Below, piece after piece: positions 5,441 through 61,057 of a stretch of DNA of 64,000 nucleotides (position 1 is its first letter; every line of letters starts with the position of its first letter). The translations under genes and the position numbers were made by a program. The notes under the pieces were generated by a model. It was not told where the DNA came from, did no database searches, and saw only the letters and a program-made list of their open reading frames with translations. Source of the stretch: Patescibacteria group bacterium. GTDB taxonomy: Bacteria; Patescibacteriota; CPR2; UBA1875; CAIMLA01. The DNA lies in contig JBGSPL010000003.1 of assembly GCA_041738615.1 (NCBI GenBank), positions 24,708-88,707 on the forward strand, in the 5' to 3' direction.

Positions 5441-6636
5441 CGTACTGGGCTCATATCTCTTAGTTTCTTTACGATTCCTGGAAGATGTTTCATCAACTCC
5501 TCTACGTCCTCTTTGCTGTTCATCTTGCCCAGCGAGAACCGGATTGCCCCATGGGCGTCAATATCCGCAAATCCCATGGCTTTCGTTACATGCGATGGCT
5601 CTAGACTCCCAGAAGTACAAGCTGAACCCGACGAAGCTGCAATCCCAACCATGTCCAGATTTATGAGGATTGATTCACCCTCGATATGTTTGAAAAGAAA
5701 TGAAACTATATGCGGTAACCGTTTGGACAACTTCTTTGGTCCCAGTAGCTCAACGTCTGGTATTTCTTTAAGGATCCTTGCGATCAGATAGTCGCATACT
5801 TCCGCGATTTTCTTCTCGTTTGTGGTCCTGTCTGCGGCTGCCTGTTTCATCGCCGCAGCCATACCGACGATGTATGGCACATTCTCGGTTCCGGCACGCA
5901 GATTACGCTCCTGAGCCCCACCTTGCTGCTGCGATGAGAACTTAGTACCTTTCTTCACGTAGAGAAGTCCCACTCCCTTGGGACCATAGAACTTATGCCC
6001 AGTAAGACTGAGCATGTCCACTCCAAGATCATGAACGTTGATATCGATGTATTGAAACGCCTGCACCGCGTCTGTATGAAATACCAGGGGCAGCGGGTTC
6101 CCCTCTTTCTGTCTCTTGTCTTTTGCTTTCTGTATAACCTTACCAATCTCGGCAATTGGTTCTACGGCCCCCATCTCATTATTGCCGTACATTACCGAAA
6201 TAATAGCTGTGTTGTCACGAATTGCTTCTGCTACGTCCTTGGGGTCTACGAGACCCTCTCGATCGACAGGAAGATAAGTTACATCAACACCATAAGTCTT
6301 GTGAAGATATTTTGCAGAGTCCAGAACACAATGATGTTCTACTGAGCTGACTATAATGTGAGGCGTGGCATGCAGAATAGTAGCCGCTGACTGGCAAACA
6401 CCCTTCAGCGCCAGATTATTGGATTCTGTAGCACCACTGGTGAAGATAATCTCTGAAGATTTCGCACCTAGTAGGTTCGCGATTTCTTCCCTAGCCTCAT
6501 TTACTGCCTCTTTTGCATCTCGCCCTAGAGAATAGATGCTCGAAGGGTTGCCAAAATGCTCAGTAAAATAGGGTTTCATTGCCGCAAGAACAGCTTCGTC
6601 TACAGGTGTCGTAGCCGCATGATCCATGTAAATCAT
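5437..6636 (-). CDS. iscS: Cysteine desulfurase (NifS/IscS, class V aminotransferase)
   Basis: MIYMDHAATTP N-terminus, SGATESNN, PLP-lysine region HKFYGPKG, active-site SSGSACTS. 399 aa. Confidence 0.92.
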   Translation of the reverse strand: MIYMDHAATTPVDEAVLAAMKPYFTEHFGNPSSIYSLGRDAKEAVNEAREEIANLLGAKSSEIIFTSGATESNNLALKGVCQSAATILHATPHIIVSSVEHHCVLDSAKYLHKTYGVDVTYLPVDREGLVDPKDVAEAIRDNTAIISVMYGNNEMGAVEPIAEIGKVIQKAKDKRQKEGNPLPLVFHTDAVQAFQYIDINVHDLGVDMLSLTGHKFYGPKGVGLLYVKKGTKFSSQQQGGAQERNLRAGTENVPYIVGMAAAMKQAAADRTTNEKKIAEVCDYLIARILKEIPDVELLGPKKLSKRLPHIVSFLFKHIEGESILINLDMVGIAASSGSACTSGSLEPSHVTKAMGFADIDAHGAIRFSLGKMNSKEDVEELMKHLPGIVKKLRDMSPVR

Positions 6637-10472: not shown

Positions 10473-12035
10473 CTATTTTTCGAGCTCTAGCCGCGGGAAA
10501 AGCTGCGCTGGCTTAGTCACTTTCTGTCCTACCGGCAGGATAGACCAAGAATCCTTGATATTTGGCTCCGCTGCCAGCAGCCCCTTGATACCGAGTGATT
10601 TTGCAATCGCAAGTGAAGTACGAGGCATTACGGGATAAATCATCCAAGCGAGCTGGTGAATGCCCTCGAGAAGTCCCACGACTACCCATTTTAAATCATC
10701 TGTCTCCCCCGTTTTGGCAAGCTGCCACGGCCGAAGTTCCTCTATATACTGATCGCATGTTTTCACAAATGCTTCGATAGTTGCTAGGGCGTCTCCAAAA
10801 CGAAGCTCAGCAATTGATCTATCGTATTCTGCATATGTCTTCTTCCAATTCCAGATATCCTCTCCTACTCGCAGTAGATGCTCATCTGGGTGACGCTCTA
10901 CCTTTGGCACCACCCCATCACAGTATTTCTCTACCATAGTGACGACGCGCGAGACCAAGTTGCCAATACCATTCGCGAGGTCATAGTTGTAGCGTTCTGC
11001 AATCTTGGTCTCAGAAATGTCTCCGTCGGTACCGTAAGGTAAAGCACGCAAGACGGAATAACGAACGGCGTCTGAGCCAAACTTCTCCACTAACTCATGT
11101 GGTCGCAGTACATTACCAATTGATTTACTCATCTTTTTTCCATCAACTGTAAAGTAACCGTGAACGTAAAGTTGCTTCGTTGTCGGTAGTTTTAGAGCGA
11201 GAAGCATGGCTTGCCAAATAGTTGCGTGAACTCTAGCAATATCCTTTGCCATTAGCTGTACGTCCGCAGGCCAGAATTTCTCGGCAAGCTTGATCTCTTT
11301 TGGCCATCCAAGTCCTGTTAAATAATTTAGGAAAGCATCAATCCAAACATAAGTTGTCTGGGTCTCGTCGAAAGGCAAATCAATCCCCCAGGAAACATTT
11401 TCCTTCTTTCGGGAGACTGCCACATCGTCAAGGCCACCGCGAACGAATGCTAGGATTTCGTTCTTCCGCTCGACGGGCAAAATCTGGATTTCGTCCTCTG
11501 AAATCAGCTGTTCCAACCTGTCTTGGTACTTAGATAAGGCAAAAAGATACGCCTCCTCCTCGTGGATTTCGCATTCACGATTGTGATCTGGACAAACCTT
11601 GCCATCCACAAGCTCAGAAATAGTCTTGTATTGCTCACAACCTACGCAGTAAAGTGCCTGGTAAGAGCCTTTGTAAATGTCGCCCTGATCGTAAAGCTTC
11701 TGTGTGACCCACCTTACCGCTTCCTCATGTTGAGGGTCGGTGGTTCGTAAGAAGTTATCATATGTTATGTCCAAAGACTTCCAAGCGGTTTTAAATTTGG
11801 CCGCCACATCGTCGGTAAACTGCTTCGGATTCTGCCCGTTAGTCTCAGCAATCTCCTGAATTTTGGCGCCATGCTCGTCGGTACCCGTCATAAAGAAGAC
11901 ATTCTCCTTGCCATAGGCTAGACGATAATAACGAGCGAGCACGTCTGCCACTGTTGAGGTGTAGACGTGGCCAATGTGGGGCTCTGCGTTGACATAATAT
12001 ATCGGAGTTGTAACATAAAATTTATTTTTTGGCAT
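10473..12035 (-). CDS. metG: Methionyl-tRNA synthetase
   Basis: HIGH-type motif (PHIGHVYT), KMSKS, Zn knuckle CVGCEQY...CPDH. 520 aa. Confidence 0.93.
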   Translation of the reverse strand: MPKNKFYVTTPIYYVNAEPHIGHVYTSTVADVLARYYRLAYGKENVFFMTGTDEHGAKIQEIAETNGQNPKQFTDDVAAKFKTAWKSLDITYDNFLRTTDPQHEEAVRWVTQKLYDQGDIYKGSYQALYCVGCEQYKTISELVDGKVCPDHNRECEIHEEEAYLFALSKYQDRLEQLISEDEIQILPVERKNEILAFVRGGLDDVAVSRKKENVSWGIDLPFDETQTTYVWIDAFLNYLTGLGWPKEIKLAEKFWPADVQLMAKDIARVHATIWQAMLLALKLPTTKQLYVHGYFTVDGKKMSKSIGNVLRPHELVEKFGSDAVRYSVLRALPYGTDGDISETKIAERYNYDLANGIGNLVSRVVTMVEKYCDGVVPKVERHPDEHLLRVGEDIWNWKKTYAEYDRSIAELRFGDALATIEAFVKTCDQYIEELRPWQLAKTGETDDLKWVVVGLLEGIHQLAWMIYPVMPRTSLAIAKSLGIKGLLAAEPNIKDSWSILPVGQKVTKPAQLFPRLELEK

Positions 12036-12624
12036 TTTCTCTCTCGATTATCGCTTCTAATTCCTGTTTCGCCTGATCCTGGCTCGTAAATTGTATAACA
12101 TTCATGCCTAGCTCGCTAGCAGCATCAGTGTTTCGCAACTTGTCGTCAATAAATACTACTTCACTAGGCTCCAGCCCAAGCTTATCGATAACGAAATGAA
12201 AGGCGCCTGGATGAGGCTTGAATTCCCCTATCACCGAGGAATAATAGATTCTATCCTCAAAAAACCGTTCATAGTGCCAAAGCTCAGAATCGTTTATTGA
12301 AAAATTACCAAAATCGTTCGAAAGCATAGCCAGTATAAACCCCCTCTGTTTTAGATCCTGAAGCCAGTCTTCGCTGCCGCTGTACAGTGCTGGTATTTCC
12401 ATCATTTTTTCAATACCTTCATCGAAACCGGTGTATGCACGTAATTTCACAAGGAACTCTGAGACATTAATTTCCCCTCGCAGTGTTTGCTGCGTGAATT
12501 CCCGGATACCTAGCAGAAACTCGTCTTTTGTGACTCCCATACGACTGCTGGCCATCAATAAGTAATCTAACCAGGTGTCTTCTACCAGCACACCGCCGTT
12601 GTCAAAAATAATCGCCTTAATCAC
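12022..12624 (-). CDS. HAD-superfamily hydrolase (paralog 2 of a tandem pair)
   Basis: Likely true start GTG at 12624 (VIKAIIFDNGGVL, RBS GGAGGTGA), overlapping the upstream paralog's TGA as GTGA. The ORF track start at 12663 is probably an over-extension. DxD motif plus C-terminal FIDD motif. Confidence 0.7.
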   Translation of the reverse strand: MIKAIIFDNGGVLVEDTWLDYLLMASSRMGVTKDEFLLGIREFTQQTLRGEINVSEFLVKLRAYTGFDEGIEKMMEIPALYSGSEDWLQDLKQRGFILAMLSNDFGNFSINDSELWHYERFFEDRIYYSSVIGEFKPHPGAFHFVIDKLGLEPSEVVFIDDKLRNTDAASELGMNVIQFTSQDQAKQELEAIIERENAKK

Positions 12625-13226
12625 AGGTTCACCTCCAAAATCTTTGCTAAATCCTCCCTGCATTGCTCTGGAGAATGGAATAATATAGTTTTCATACCTA
12701 GTTCCCGCGCTGGCACTAGGTTTGCTTCACGGTCATCGACGAAGATAACCTCCCCTGGATTTACCCCGAGTCTTTCGGTTGCATACTGGTAAAAATCTGT
12801 GTCAGGCTTTGCGAGATGTAGCTTAGAAGAAACAAAAACCTTGTCCTCCTCGAATATCTCCTCGTAATTCCACAGGTTCTCGTTCAAGGTGTCGAAACAA
12901 TCAACAAAGTTTGTGAGCAGTGCCAAATCATATTTTCCCTTCAATGAGAGCAGAAGTTCTCGCATTTCCTGCTTTGGCTGATAGCAGGAAAGTAATATCT
13001 CCCACAATTCTTGGGGTTGATACTTCTTCCTGAGAGTTGTAGCCAAACGCTCAAAAAATTCCTCTGTGGTAATCGCTCCACGGTCCGCTGCCTCAACAAC
13101 TTTGTGAAATATCGGACGTAGATACTCGGTATCAACGCCAAAATAGTCCGCAAATCGAGGCACAGTCGTGTCGTTGTCGCATGAAGTAAGAACCCCGTTG
13201 TTGTCAAAAATAATCGCCTTGATCAT
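12621..13226 (-). CDS. HAD-superfamily hydrolase (paralog 1)
   Basis: MIKAIIFDNNGVL motif I, FVDD motif. 201 aa, same architecture as the adjacent paralog. Confidence 0.75.
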   Translation of the reverse strand: MIKAIIFDNNGVLTSCDNDTTVPRFADYFGVDTEYLRPIFHKVVEAADRGAITTEEFFERLATTLRKKYQPQELWEILLSCYQPKQEMRELLLSLKGKYDLALLTNFVDCFDTLNENLWNYEEIFEEDKVFVSSKLHLAKPDTDFYQYATERLGVNPGEVIFVDDREANLVPARELGMKTILFHSPEQCREDLAKILEVNL

Positions 13227-13882
13227 TTGGCCGACTCCAGAATGACTACGAATTCACCCTTCTCTTTGATTTTGGGTAAAACTTCGCTGATTTTACCCCT
13301 ATATGTTTCCTCAAATTTCTTCGTGAGCTCCCTCGAGACCGAAACTTCCCGATCTCCTACAAATTCTAGGAGCTCAGTAAGCAACTTGTTGATCCGAAAT
13401 GGTGATTCGTACAAAATAGTTGTTCGGTTGATAAGCGCAATTTCCTTAAGCTTTGTTTGCCTTCCCTTCTTATGGGGCAGAAAGCCGATAAACACAAATT
13501 CATCGGTGCTAAGTCCGGAAACTGAAAGTGCCGTTACGGCAGCCGAAACGCCAGGAATAGGCACGACATCAATGCTATTTTCTATCGCGGCACGGATTAG
13601 AAACTCTCCTGGATCGCTAATCCCTGGTGTACCTGCATCGGTAACCAGCGCAACGTTTTTGCCCTCCAGAATTGAGCTAATTATTTGTTCAACCTTGCTG
13701 TCCCGCGAGTGCTGATGATAGCTTACAAGAGGCTTCTTGATATCAAAATGATTGAGCAGCTGCAGGGTGTGACGGGTATCCTCACAGGCTATCACGTCTG
13801 CTGACTTTAGGGTGTCTAGTGCGCGTAAAGTAATATCGCCTAAATTCCCTATCGGTGTGGATACTACATACAGAGTTCCCAT
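13223..13882 (-). CDS. rsmI: 16S rRNA (cytidine1402-2'-O)-methyltransferase RsmI
   Basis: MGTLYVVSTPIGNLGDITLRAL...ADVIACEDTRHT tetrapyrrole-methylase-like RsmI signature. Confidence 0.85.
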   Translation of the reverse strand: MGTLYVVSTPIGNLGDITLRALDTLKSADVIACEDTRHTLQLLNHFDIKKPLVSYHQHSRDSKVEQIISSILEGKNVALVTDAGTPGISDPGEFLIRAAIENSIDVVPIPGVSAAVTALSVSGLSTDEFVFIGFLPHKKGRQTKLKEIALINRTTILYESPFRINKLLTELLEFVGDREVSVSRELTKKFEETYRGKISEVLPKIKEKGEFVVILESAK

Positions 13883-14159: not shown

Positions 14160-14993
14160 TTAACTTTTATAGATTTCGGTATATACGTTATATAAATTAT
14201 ACCAGTCCATCATAGTAAGGCCCTCTGCCCTGGTCATCGGGTTTATACCCGCTTTATTTAGCATCTCTTCTACGATATCCCGTTGAAGCAACAGACCACC
14301 GCTGAGTGAGTTGATGAGTTGCTTTCTTTTTTCGTGGAATCCTGCCTTCACGATGCGAAAGAAAATGCGCTTGTCGACATCAAAAAGTGGTTTCTTGTAC
14401 ACACGGATTTTTAGAATTGCTGAGTCCACCTTGGGTGCGGGGAAAAAGGCGGTACGCGGTACCACCTCAACTATAGTGGGGTTGCCGTAAAATTGAACCG
14501 AAACCGCAAGCACACTCATTCGAGATGGTTTAGCGCAGATCCTCTCGGCAACCTCGCGCTGAATTAGTAAAACCATCTCTTCTGGTTTGTTATCTGATTC
14601 TAGAAAAAGTCGAATGATTGCACTGGTAATGTAGTAAGGGACATTGGCGACAACCTTGTAATCGCCTAGCTCATCGGTATTGTATTTGAGTACATCGACA
14701 TTCTCCACACGCAAGTTCGTGTGTTTGATACAGCTAGTTTTGACGATTGCTATCATCGAACGATCTAGCTCGAGAGCCACCACTTCCTTGGCCTTTTTAC
14801 AGAGCTCCTTGGTAAGAATCCCCATGCCGGGGCCAACCTCGACAACCCTATCGTTTTCTTGGACATCGGCAGCCTCTACTATTGCCTCCAAGGAGTGCTG
14901 GTCTACTAGAAAATGCTGACCGAGGTCCTTATTGGCGTAAGCGCCGTAGGCCTTTAGAGTTTTCTTGATTTCGGTTATATCGGTAAGATCCAT
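14160..14993 (-). CDS. rsmA: 16S rRNA (adenine1518/1519-N6)-dimethyltransferase RsmA/KsgA
   Basis: LGQHFLVD...VVEVGPGMGILT SAM-binding motif, NVPYYITS motif. Confidence 0.88.
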   Translation of the reverse strand: MDLTDITEIKKTLKAYGAYANKDLGQHFLVDQHSLEAIVEAADVQENDRVVEVGPGMGILTKELCKKAKEVVALELDRSMIAIVKTSCIKHTNLRVENVDVLKYNTDELGDYKVVANVPYYITSAIIRLFLESDNKPEEMVLLIQREVAERICAKPSRMSVLAVSVQFYGNPTIVEVVPRTAFFPAPKVDSAILKIRVYKKPLFDVDKRIFFRIVKAGFHEKRKQLINSLSGGLLLQRDIVEEMLNKAGINPMTRAEGLTMMDWYNLYNVYTEIYKS

Positions 14994-39295: not shown

Positions 39296-39370
39296 GGTCC
39301 CATCGTCTAGTGGTTAGGACGCCAGGTTTTCATCCTGGTAACAGGGGTTCGACTCCCCTTGGGACTACCA
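39296..39370 (+). tRNA. tRNA-Glu (anticodon UUC), CCA encoded
   Basis: Manual cloverleaf: acceptor GGTCCCA/TGGGACT, anticodon loop TTTTCAT, T-arm GGGGTTCGACTCCCC, discriminator A. Confidence 0.85.
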
Positions 39371-39530
39371 GCAAGAAATCTCAGCCATTTGGCTGGGATT
39401 TTTGCTTTTAGCTAAGTGGTGAGAACCCCTGGGTGACCAAATGGTTGAGTTCAATTTACAGATAAACCAGGCGGTAAATACATGGATTTGTGATATAGTA
39501 TGTAGGTCCTGATATTGGTGAGAAGCTCAG

Positions 39531-39551
39531 CGACTCCCCTTGGGACTACCA
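39531..39551 (+). repeat. Exact 21-nt direct repeat of the tRNA-Glu 3' end (CGACTCCCCTTGGGACTACCA), att-like
   Basis: Identical to 39350-39370. Followed by hairpin AGAGACTGATC...GGTCGGTCTCT plus a T-run. Confidence 0.8.
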
Positions 39552-39605
39552 AAAAGAGACTGATCATTTGTGGAAATGGTCGGTCTCTTTTTTTATTATC
39601 TATTC

Positions 39606-57035: not shown

Positions 57036-57175
57036 CGCAAATTACAGTACCTTAAGAATTGGGACTGCCTATACGCTTATTTTTACGAGTGCAAGCTGTA
57101 TTTGATCGTGAATGAATCACTGACAGCTGCCACTCGTAAATGCGAGCTGGCATACACCAATCAGCCAAGGAGGCG

Positions 57176-57901
57176 ATGATTGTGACGAGCACATTGCTTT
57201 GCCTGACCGAGGAGCAGCAGAGGTCTATTCAGGCCCTTGCATCAAATCTCCGGGCAGGATGGTTCGGCGACCTCATGACACACATGCAGCTCACCCTTCT
57301 CGACGGCTACGTTAGCATCGGGACAGACCAGCTCAATCGCGACAAGATCACCCTCAAGTACACCGAGGGGGTATCCTCGCTCGAGATCGTCTCGGAGCCC
57401 AAACGATGGGAACTCCGGGCTCATCACGACGGCGCCGACGCGATGGTGATCCTTGAGCCCGTTGTGACTTCAACGTTCGAGACGGAACCTGTCCTGGAGT
57501 GGACGTTGAAGGCAGTACAACTGCTTACCCCGGCCGCATCCAAGAGCCAGGAGTTCCTGATTCTGGAAGTACTCTTTGCCGCGCTTCGGCGCAATGGCAA
57601 GAAGGCCTTCACGACCCAGGGCAGCGGCAATGTCTTCTCCTTCGACGGTGATCACACTGTTTCATACGTGGGCAAGAAGGACGGCTTCGGCCACCAGCAC
57701 ATCTGGGTCTACGTCGAACATGCCGACCACTTCGAGCTCATCGGGAACGTCTACGGAGACGAGATCCGCACCACGAAGGTCGAGGTGGACGGCATCTACT
57801 TCCACGACAGTGAACAGCGGCGCCACCGCAGCGACCTGATCAACACGAAGGAGATGCACCCAGCCGAAGAAGCGCTCCGCCACATCTGCCGGCGCTTCTA
57901 G
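57176..57901 (+). CDS. Hypothetical protein (~241 aa) encoded in a ~59% GC island adjacent to tRNA-Pro; likely horizontally acquired
   Basis: Likely start ATG at 57176 with SD AAGGAGG at 57167-57173 (the ORF track start at 57140 lacks an SD). GC content is far above flanking DNA. No recognisable domain. Confidence 0.55.
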   Translation: MIVTSTLLCLTEEQQRSIQALASNLRAGWFGDLMTHMQLTLLDGYVSIGTDQLNRDKITLKYTEGVSSLEIVSEPKRWELRAHHDGADAMVILEPVVTSTFETEPVLEWTLKAVQLLTPAASKSQEFLILEVLFAALRRNGKKAFTTQGSGNVFSFDGDHTVSYVGKKDGFGHQHIWVYVEHADHFELIGNVYGDEIRTTKVEVDGIYFHDSEQRRHRSDLINTKEMHPAEEALRHICRRF

Positions 57902-58024: not shown

Positions 58025-58101
58025 TGGTCGGGGTGAAAGGACTCGAACCTTCGACCTCGCGGTCCCAAACCGCGCGCACTAGCCAACTGTGCTACACCCC
58101 G
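58025..58101 (-). tRNA. tRNA-Pro (anticodon UGG)
   Basis: Reverse complement gives CGGGGTGTAGCACAGTTGGCTAGTGCGCGCGGTTTGGGACCGCGAGGTCGAAGGTTCGAGTCCTTTCACCCCGACCA. Loop TTTGGGA. Confidence 0.85.
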
Positions 58102-60179: not shown

Positions 60180-60256
60180 GTGACTGTAGCTCAGCTGGTA
60201 GAGCTCCGGTTTGTGGTACCGGCGGTCGCGGGTTCGAGCCCCGTCAGTCACCCCAT
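60180..60256 (+). tRNA. tRNA-His (anticodon GUG) with encoded G-1
   Basis: G-1 + GTGACTG acceptor, loop TTGTGGT, discriminator C, CCA. Confidence 0.85.
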
Positions 60257-60411
60257 ATAAAAATATCTCACCCCTGGGGTGAGTTGTTTTTATATTAGCG
60301 ACCGATGTGTTAAGAATCCAAAGAAGCCATGAAGTTAAGGCCTCGATTACGTTAAATACTCCAACCCGACTTGTATGTCCTAACGCGAACTAATTAGATG
60401 GCTGTAACAGC

Positions 60412-60435
60412 TTCGAGCCCCGTCAGTCACCCCAT
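60412..60435 (+). repeat. Exact 24-nt direct repeat of the tRNA-His 3' end (TTCGAGCCCCGTCAGTCACCCCAT), att-like
   Basis: Identical to 60233-60256 plus one further base. Lies 155 nt downstream of tRNA-His. Confidence 0.8.
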
Positions 60436-60447
60436 TAATTATTAAAA

Positions 60448-60470
60448 AAAGAGGCCCCGGAGGCCTCTTT
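60448..60470. terminator. Bidirectional terminator AAAGAGGCC-ccgg-AGGCCTCTTT
   Basis: 9-bp perfect stem flanked by an A-run and a T-run. Overlaps the stop of the 60470..61057 gene. Confidence 0.75.
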
Positions 60471-61057
60471 CAGTTCTTTGTGGCAACAAAGTCATTTATA
60501 CTTTTAAGAGTATTTATTGCCCTCTGAATTCCCTTTGGATCAATTGTTTTAATCAGCTCGTAAACGTCATCAGACAAAAAGAACTTAATACGCTTCTTTT
60601 GAAGTTCTGGGGAATCATTCTCATTGTAGAGATCTATTTGCCCTGCTGATTGATCAAGCTCATAAACATATTTGAGCATTTCGTCAATTGCTACCGAGTT
60701 CGCTGAAATGACTCGAAGCAGTTCTATGCTTGATGAATCCATATTGCCAGCTATTTGATTCAGGGTCACTACTATCAGATTCAACCACTCAAAAGCGAGT
60801 TTGCGTTTACTATCATCTCGCAGATACTCTAGTAACCCCTCTTTAGTAAACAATTCTTTTGCCGCTTGGAGCTTCTCTATAAGAATTGCTTCGTCACTAG
60901 CAGATGCCTCAACAGAAGCCTGCAGCTCTATCTTCTCGGCTTCAGTAAACTTCGGCTCCATAGAGTTTGTTTCTGATTGGCCTAGTCGGTGACTGTACGA
61001 ATAATCTATATTGAAAGGAGAAAATTCATCGTTTTCTTTCATAACACGAGTATACAT
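60470..61057 (-). CDS. Hypothetical acidic protein (195 aa), AT-rich gene next to tRNA-His att-like repeat
   Basis: About 37% GC against a ~46% background. No motif recognised. Flanked by strong terminators on both sides. Confidence 0.45.
   Translation of the reverse strand: MYTRVMKENDEFSPFNIDYSYSHRLGQSETNSMEPKFTEAEKIELQASVEASASDEAILIEKLQAAKELFTKEGLLEYLRDDSKRKLAFEWLNLIVVTLNQIAGNMDSSSIELLRVISANSVAIDEMLKYVYELDQSAGQIDLYNENDSPELQKKRIKFFLSDDVYELIKTIDPKGIQRAINTLKSINDFVATKN

Follow-up and report, generated by a model that had tools for sequence, protein, structure and literature searches.

Why is an intact tRNA gene followed, a short way downstream, by an exact copy of its own 3' end? The question is raised by a 64,000-nucleotide (nt) stretch of DNA from a Patescibacteria group bacterium (contig JBGSPL010000003.1, positions 24,708 to 88,707 of the forward strand), called the window below, in which one tRNA-Glu gene and one tRNA-His gene both show this arrangement. 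A first-pass annotation of the window had called the repeat at tRNA-Glu att-like (attachment-site-like), noted the same architecture at tRNA-His and argued for a systematic process, namely very small non-coding integrative elements, remnants of serial integration and deletion, or small RNAs that mimic a tRNA 3' end. Our own conclusion, to which we assign a probability of roughly 0.55, is that the copies mark miniature, non-coding and integrase-less integrative elements of about 120 to 185 base pairs (bp) that came to lie in tRNA 3' ends of Patescibacteria by site-specific insertion.

The tRNA-Glu(UUC) gene of the window is intact (39296..39370, + strand; called by ARAGORN, and by Rfam with 65.4 bits), and its sequence is the same in two of the loci used for comparison, L085 and L208 (L-numbers denote the fetched loci and contigs compared with the window). 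Its last 21 nt, CGACTCCCCTTGGGACTACCA, comprise tRNA positions 56 to 76 including the CCA and occur exactly twice in the window: at 39350-39370 (+), as the left, attL-like copy, and at 39531..39551 (+), as the right, attR-like copy, which is a displaced tRNA-Glu 3' end with its CCA. The start-to-start spacing of the two is 181 nt, and none of 100 shuffles matched the repeat, even when 3 mismatches were allowed. Each copy has its own terminator, as the first-pass annotation had said, with a 13-bp terminator-like hairpin and T-run after the tRNA (39374-39403) and a 19-bp hairpin after the second copy (39551-39592); the sequences 3' of the two copies are unrelated to each other. The 160-nt body contains no credible open reading frame (ORF), the only frame of at least 40 amino acids (aa) being a 41-aa one with a TTG start that runs through the terminator.

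The recurrence of this architecture at tRNA-His(GUG) was likewise borne out. The gene is intact (60180..60255, +; ARAGORN and Rfam), and its last 23 nt, TTCGAGCCCCGTCAGTCACCCCA (positions 54 to 76), stand at 60233-60255 and again at 60412-60434, with a spacing of 179 nt and a terminator after each copy. The insert (60256..60434, +) thus consists of a 156-nt body, which holds no ORF, and the 23-nt repeat. It opens with a terminator (60255-60295, +) whose 5' arm, ATATCTCACC at +8 (offsets are counted from the tRNA end), is identical to that of the tRNA-Glu insert of L096, and another terminator hairpin lies behind the copy (60448..60470, +). The tRNA-His and tRNA-Glu insert bodies of the window are unrelated in sequence, and the other five tRNAs of the window have no such 3'-end copy.

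That these segments are insertions is seen from related loci. Orthologous loci were collected through homologs of the histidine kinase next to tRNA-Glu and of a glycosyltransferase, together with a metagenome scan with kinase alignment; the kinase homologs are labelled Patescibacteria or candidate phyla radiation (CPR) by their sources. GAPDH proved too conserved as a query for genome scans, with a top match of 62% identity, matches in unrelated phyla and zero relatives retrieved. The related DNA gathered amounts to about 1.26 Mb, with 121 tRNA genes, of which 105 are distinct loci. In L085, whose kinase is 78% identical to that of the window, the tRNA-Glu continues directly into AAAAAGAGACTGATCATTTGTGGAAATGGTCGGTCTCTTTTT, which is the hairpin found after the second copy of the window, with 41 of 41 nt identical. 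Altogether, tRNA-Glu is directly followed by the native hairpin in eight lineages (L085, L086, L088, L092, L093, L204, L206 and L208), and the distance to the kinase stop codon is 52 nt from the tRNA-Glu end in L088 and 54 nt from the second copy in the window. Because the tRNA of the relatives abuts that terminator, the window locus has 181 extra nt before it, i.e., an insertion at 39371..39551 (+) made of the 160-nt non-coding body and the 21-nt repeat, the boundaries of which can slide within the repeat so that 39350-39530 is equivalent. In the nearest two genomes, L170 (whose tRNA-His is identical) and L171, the tRNA-His site is empty, the tRNA being followed by one terminator and HU, with no copy. 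Both loci of the window therefore carry an insertion that close relatives lack, and the comparison of orthologous tRNA-Glu loci that had been proposed with the first description reveals an insert to be present in some relatives and absent from others.

The surroundings of the two sites hold further features. The native tRNA-Glu terminator (window 39551..39598, +; L085 14898-14940) is bidirectional and also serves the convergent histidine-kinase gene. At least nine lineages have the loop ATTTGTGGAAAT without change, and the stem varies, with covarying stems in L086, L088, L092, L093, L204, L206 and L208 that include GAGACTGATC, GAGACATAAT and GAGGTGTAAC; since this constraint exceeds what a plain intrinsic terminator needs, the hairpin may bind a protein or an RNA. 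In L208 (13885-13942, -), tRNA-Glu and terminator are separated by the insertion of a short repeat, ACTTCGCyAArGCTACG..GGCGAGCC, and similar sequences are found 3' of tRNA-Lys in L160 (820-860) and in intergenic DNA of L098 (about 6160-6200) and L100 (about 12500-12540). That this repeat type recurs there and in other intergenic regions of Patescibacteria makes the tRNA-terminator junction look like a hot spot for insertion. At the tRNA-His locus, a 195-aa ORF (60470-61057, -) separates the copy from HU; L170 and L171, in which tRNA-His abuts HU, lack this ORF, and it has no match in Pfam, PHROGs or PADLOC. It might be cargo that an earlier insertion at this tRNA-His brought in.

The tRNA-Glu insert of the window belongs to a family. 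An exact copy of the gene's own 3' end, 18 to 22 nt long and 64 to 165 nt downstream, is present at 5 of the 33 distinct tRNA-Glu loci (window, L083, L096, L107 and L148), decayed copies are present at two (L101, split by about 30 nt, and L168, truncated), and the same layout occurs at one tRNA-Lys (L102) and at the tRNA-His of the window. In all nine cases the repeat starts at one of positions 54 to 59, in the T-loop, and runs to A76. Collinear inserts are found in the window and in L083, L096 and L101, whose neighbouring kinases are 50 to 79% identical: an opening terminator, then blocks 1 to 3, then 14 to 31 variable nt and the T-stem strand of the copy. Block 1 (GGTGAGAACCCCTGG, 39418..39432, +, in the window; consensus GrTGArAACyCCTG) starts at +48, +48, +49 and +48 in the window, L083, L096 and L101, respectively. 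Block 2 (TTCAATTTACAGAT, 39450..39463, +) is conserved in the window, L083 and L101, with TTTACAGA at +84/85, and is missing in L096. Block 3 (TGATATTGGTGAGAAG, 39510..39525, +; consensus TGATAnnrGTrAG) is kept in all four members, where it begins 138 to 140 nt after the tRNA end (+138 to +140) and shortly precedes the repeat. A family profile run with nhmmer on about 2.5 Mb recovered the four members at E values of 1e-21 to 1e-35 and no further insert, the other matches being weak ones to tRNA 3' ends only (E of 0.07 or worse); in the window and the fetched loci, the blocks are found nowhere but at tRNA-Glu.

Pairwise identity between inserts is flat, at 0.64 to 0.71 (shuffle maximum, 0.63), over host kinase identities of 0.50 to 0.79, so that it is only the blocks and their spacing that are maintained. 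The repeats, in turn, follow the host: differences between the tRNA-Glu 3' ends, at positions 58 and 73 (L083), 70 (L096) and 62 and 73 (L101), are all mirrored in the copy, and no unmirrored change between a resident tRNA and its copy was seen. Block 1 also contains GAACCCCTG, the reverse complement of tRNA-Glu positions 47 to 55 (CAGGGGTTC, 39342-39350), and hence an inverted T-arm-like segment. The body matches the reverse complement of the resident tRNA's T-arm in seven of eight inserts (p ≤ 0.045 each), with which an independent repeat scan agrees, and in the tRNA-Lys insert of L102 the corresponding segment, GACTCGAACTCG, likewise starts at +48. In L083 and L101 the segment forms a 5-bp hairpin with the stem sequence of the T-stem and the loop ATGArAA; we treat it as a sequence motif rather than an RNA structure because the window forms only three of the five pairs.

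The left ends are shared as well. In the window, the tRNA-Glu insert opens with a terminator hairpin of its own, AAATCTCAGCCA/TGGCTGGGATTT with a T-run (39374..39409, +), the 5' arm of which is of the ATATCTCACC family. Such a 5' arm, 6 to 8 nt after the CCA, is found at 3 of the 7 loci with a copy and at 2 of the 98 remaining loci, one of the two being L101 (Fisher p = 0.0018). This left-end module is common to the tRNA-Glu inserts of the window, L096 and L101 and to the tRNA-His insert of the window, identical in 10 of 10 nt between the last and L096, so that the two inserts of the window share a left end despite their unrelated bodies. L083 has a left-end-type module 3' of the copy and a different terminator of the same length 3' of the tRNA, which is most simply explained by a second insertion on the upstream side of an earlier element, part of which was later lost. 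Of the three alternatives offered by the first-pass annotation, that of very small non-coding integrative elements fits best, since the insert is one of a conserved family whose geometry is fixed.

A few pairings within members of the family were also recorded. In L101 (about 14700-14745, -), the 21-nt copy is split by the insertion of about 30 nt and reads CGACTCTCCTTG, inserted cctgcccgcccgaaataaaacgaaggagga, then GGACTGCCA; within the inserted part, AAGGAG can pair with CTCCTT of the T-stem strand. Within the window, 39380-39392 and 39437-39449 are complementary at 12 of 13 positions, connecting the 5' arm and loop of the first terminator (CTCAGCCATTTGG) with the segment after block 1 (CCAAATGGTTGAG). 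Block 3 of L083, TGGTGAGA, is complementary to the 5' arm of the post-copy terminator, TCTCACCA.

How could such inserts have arrived? The architecture is consistent with conservative site-specific recombination of the tyrosine-integrase type, with the crossover in or next to the T-loop. The tRNA gene would recombine with a circle of about 180 bp that amounts to hardly more than an attP region, and the repeats would become attL and attR; the tRNA would be regenerated intact, the original 3' end and native terminator would be pushed downstream, and the left-end hairpin would restore termination of the tRNA transcript. Blocks 1 to 3, inverted T-arm-like segment included, would be binding sites of a recombinase that acts in trans, supplied from elsewhere in the genome or by a helper element. 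The predicted circle junction would read ...GGTGAGAAGCTCAG-CGACTCCCCTTGGGACTACCA-GCAAGAAATCTCAGCC (block 3, repeat, left-end hairpin), and in the predicted empty allele tRNA-Glu would be joined directly to AAAAAGAGACTGATC. The insertions, the family with its fixed geometry, the tRNA-matched repeats and the shared left end are observed; the recombinase, the crossover position and any present-day mobility we infer. By length, the whole insert corresponds to about one attP region, which measures about 240 bp in lambda.

Several results weigh against this mechanism. No recombinase was found among the 20 window ORFs tested or in the gene tables of the related loci, no full-size parent element was seen, and no locus has a copy more than 600 nt away; these negatives, and that for dispersed copies given below, cover the 64-kb window and the fetched loci. 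Scans of the viral contigs of IMG/VR with the insert blocks and four tRNA 3' ends yielded no phage attP, the matches being mostly phage tRNA-Glu genes, with some chance coding matches. At attL the T-stem itself is present, and upstream of attR the sequence, GAGAAGCTCAG, is unlike the T-stem 5' strand, the inverted T-arm-like segment lying elsewhere, at +48; a canonical core-type inverted repeat would need such likeness upstream of the right copy, and none is recognisable at that junction. Iterated arm-type repeats had no statistical support against shuffles except in L102. All family members have diverged from each other, so that there is no direct sign of recent transfer, and perfect repeat identity everywhere would result as well from a mechanism that copies the host sequence or from gene conversion. 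The kinase tree, with occupied tRNA-Glu sites on basal branches (L096 and L101) and in the window plus L083, requires either at least three gains or at least five precise losses; we count it in favour of insertion, but by itself it cannot exclude an ancestral element repeatedly lost through its direct repeats. The branching order at the node of window, L083 and L085 is unsettled, because the glycosyltransferase puts L085 (82% identical to the window) nearer than L083 (64%).

Taken with the earlier description, then, the att-like repeat, the mini-insert and the systematic process are supported, given the empty sites, the repeat from T-loop to CCA and the three tRNA identities in several genomes; the tyrosine integrase that it invoked stays conjectural, neither integrase nor attP having turned up. 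A search of the genome for further duplicated tRNA ends and for an integrase had also been suggested; such ends exist in related loci (L083, L096, L107, L148 and L102), and no integrase was found in the window ORFs or the related loci.

Candidates for the missing partners fell away on inspection. In L211 and L221 the putative attP match lies inside a 180-aa ORF, and in L210 inside a 1,147-aa ORF; L190 and L202 carry classical anticodon-loop att fragments of another lineage. Iterated repeats picked out by eye, TGA[G/T]A and GTTAAr, were not significant against shuffles, and only ACTCGA, present three times in L102, was. The IMG/VR fragments in L190 (343-359), L202 (83-99) and L173 (50-125) derive from tRNA-Glu(CUC) of an unrelated host and lie at prophage contig ends; their identity block of 45 nt runs from the anticodon loop to the CCA, in contrast to the T-loop class of the mini-inserts.

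The inserts could instead be inert scars, the roughly 160 functionless and immobile nt left when a full island or prophage at each tRNA suffered an internal deletion that fused its att arms. Their direct-repeat anatomy is that of islands (PMC4383910), no integrase is present, and some copies are decayed (L101 and L168) or, at tRNA-Lys, degenerate (L138 and L154/L167). However, independent deletions would not leave collinear content with offsets within 1 to 2 nt in four genomes, and a single ancient scar would lose its blocks where host intergenic DNA is saturated, whereas insert identity stays flat across host distances and the blocks are kept where inspection by eye finds no visible alignment of the tRNA promoter regions. 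As two unrelated bodies in one genome also have a left-end module in common and are almost equal in size (179 and 181 nt), we consider scars unlikely; the first-pass idea of serial integration and deletion remnants fails in so far as inert scars cannot explain the conservation, and survives in so far as serial insertion probably occurs (L083). Quite improbable, in our view, is an ancestral host cis-element, a DNA or RNA module that is inherited vertically and repeatedly lost via the 21-nt repeats, its copy kept matched by gene conversion or selection. The occupied sites on basal branches and in the window and L083 would suit such a module, deletion between direct repeats would recreate the exact empty site, and the blocks are under constraint. 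Yet it needs at least five independent precise losses and is dispensable in most lineages, the L101 copy is interrupted while the blocks are intact, the different first terminator and the left-end module after the copy in L083 better fit a second insertion, and the recurrence of the plan at tRNA-His and tRNA-Lys, where the bodies are unrelated, points to a process rather than one inherited locus. A tRNA-primed retro-insertion would start from a small RNA with a primer-binding site for the last 18 to 23 nt of the tRNA, reverse-transcribed from the CCA-3'OH and incorporated at the tRNA gene. The insert does begin exactly after the mature 3' end, A76, the repeat is as long as a typical primer-binding site (18 to 23 nt), and the copy would match the resident tRNA without a pre-adapted attP; an identity block ending at A76 is, however, equally expected under the att model, because the tRNA must be restored. 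With no reverse transcriptase in the gene tables near any site, no other complementarity to the tRNA on the primer-binding-site strand (the inverted T-arm-like segment is on the other strand), a hypothetical incorporation step and, to our knowledge, no bacterial precedent, we regard this route as very improbable.

Two further explanations take the insert for an RNA or for a duplicated tRNA. In the former, it would be a small-RNA gene whose 3' end mimics the acceptor and T-arm 3' strand of the tRNA and which acts as a decoy or regulator, in keeping with a copy that has the CCA and then a terminator, like a tRNA precursor, and with a block 1 complementary to tRNA positions 47 to 55 and, in L083, to the anticodon loop (GGATGAAAACC). 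Rfam, at gathering and at E = 10, returned only tRNAs and terminator noise and no family match to the insert. Body plus copy folded no better than shuffles (z of -0.1 to -0.7 in six of seven, +1.1 for tRNA-His), the best duplex between copy and body was not above chance, and the consensus fold of the family is the one weak 5-bp hairpin described above. No promoter-like site was seen inside the tRNA-Glu insert, which lies between two terminators, and the element is absent from most close relatives. A tRNA-mimicking RNA, as suggested by the first-pass annotation, thus has hardly any likelihood left. As to tandem duplication in place, either of the 3' region of the tRNA or of an entire tRNA gene whose 5' part then decayed, there are true cases at tRNA-Lys(CUU): L138, L154 and L167 have degenerate 30-nt 3'-end copies only 20 nt after the gene, with the same AGAAATCAT after both copies in L154/L167, and these are short tandem duplications distinct from the insert type. 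In the window, the post-copy sequences are unrelated, the tRNA-Glu body has no significant similarity to the tRNA 3' region in direct orientation (p = 0.25; best direct match to the whole tRNA, 6 nt), neither ARAGORN nor Rfam calls a second tRNA at the tRNA-Glu insert, and the body is homologous to the inserts of other genomes; across all inserts, direct-orientation similarity reached p values of 0.03 to 0.05 only in L102 and L168. Duplication is largely refuted for the window, and its probability is close to nil.

Other readings of insert details were dropped. An acceptor-stem partner (GGTCCTG in the window) lacks conservation and does not exceed chance; a mini-ORF in block 1 (M-R/K-T-P-E-stop) has a 1-nt indel in L096 and, by eye, no ribosome-binding-site spacing. 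Block 1 as an older direct copy of the tRNA end gave a weak fit, in L168 and L102 only. For a T-box-like specifier/UGGN reading, Rfam gave no T-box match, and by eye the UGGN is missing from L096 and L101.

Among known systems, the inserts are best filed as a miniature, gene-less version of tRNA-targeted integrative elements, and they are more organised than first seen. Tyrosine-integrase islands and prophages reside in tRNA genes between attL and attR (Reiter 1989 and Williams 2002, as cited in PMC4383910), and Islander recognises an island by a regenerated tDNA together with a displaced 3' fragment; of its 3,919 islands, 1,836 use T-stem-region sites and 3,760 have 3' fragments (PMC4383910). 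The inserts share with such islands the intact tRNA with its cognate displaced 3' fragment downstream in the same orientation, the identity block from the T-loop/T-stem region to the tRNA 3' end, and a precise empty attB in relatives (eight loci for tRNA-Glu; L170 and L171 for tRNA-His), tandem occupancy being possible. They differ in size, at about 0.12 to 0.19 kb (181 and 179 nt in the window) against island peaks of 13.6 and 39.9 kb (PMC4383910). They also lack an integrase gene or any other gene and a recognisable core-type inverted repeat at the right junction, and their interior is a conserved non-coding family with fixed spacing.

Three other comparisons are instructive. Cis-mobilizable elements (CIMEs) of streptococcal integrative and conjugative elements (ICEs) have att sites on both sides and no recombination genes, and presumably rely on the integrase of a related element; they are kilobases long, carry genes and are understood as decayed ICEs. 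The inserts are also integrase-less with att-like flanks, but are attP-sized and conserved as such. Miniature inverted-repeat transposable elements (MITEs) resemble them in being short, non-coding, spread as a family across genomes and presumably mobilised in trans. In contrast to MITEs, the inserts have no terminal inverted repeats at their ends, their flank is 18 to 23 nt of a specific tRNA end instead of a 2- to 10-bp target duplication, and there is one insert copy per target, with no dispersed near-identical copies. With tRNA-like RNAs, such as the tRNA-like domain of transfer-messenger RNA, YrlA and viral tRNA-like 3' ends, the inserts have in common the T-arm 3' strand, the acceptor 3' strand and the CCA, but they lack the complementary 5' acceptor/T-stem strand, a family match and excess structure.

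It is tempting to go further and speculate that the inserts represent an undescribed class in Patescibacteria, although we hold this wider proposal to be rather doubtful: a self-contained attP of about 170 to 185 bp, still moving in trans among the T-loops of tRNA-Glu, tRNA-His and tRNA-Lys as the recombination counterpart of MITEs, in which the left-end terminator module would be shared, the inverted T-arm-like segment would be the recombinase site and the right end would be specific to the tRNA. Within that proposal, elements that occupy tRNA sites may block or modulate phage integration. Integration at tRNA genes is a classic entry route of prophages and islands, studied almost only via elements that bear an integrase, and the reduced CPR genomes are thought to be poor in mobile DNA. 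If the inserts are miniature integrative elements, site-specific recombination systems would give rise to miniature non-autonomous parasites in the way that transposases give rise to MITEs, short tRNA-end duplications that island finders discard for lacking an integrase could be organised elements, and reduced CPR genomes would hold an active layer of mobile DNA.

On the practical side, occupied and empty alleles can serve as strain markers, and duplicated tRNA ends may complicate short-read assembly. Two Logan contigs of the same sample, L001 and L002 (SRR28170474), break inside the tRNA-Glu body at window positions 39323-39340, with an overlap of 18 nt; the break could come from co-occurring strains that share part of the tRNA.

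Elsewhere in the window, a 253-aa ORF (57140-57901, +) lies at the 3' side of tRNA-Pro (58025-58101, -), where relatives have a MazE-like gene; this lineage-specific ORF has no match in Pfam, PHROGs or PADLOC. Relative to the glycosyltransferase gene, tRNA-Pro points one way in the window and L172 and the other way in L170, L171 and L083. At 12022-13226 (-), two adjacent HAD-family hydrolase paralogs of 213 and 201 aa carry a 55-nt direct repeat that is 76% identical (12587-12641 and 13189-13243), and the pair is a tandem gene duplication.

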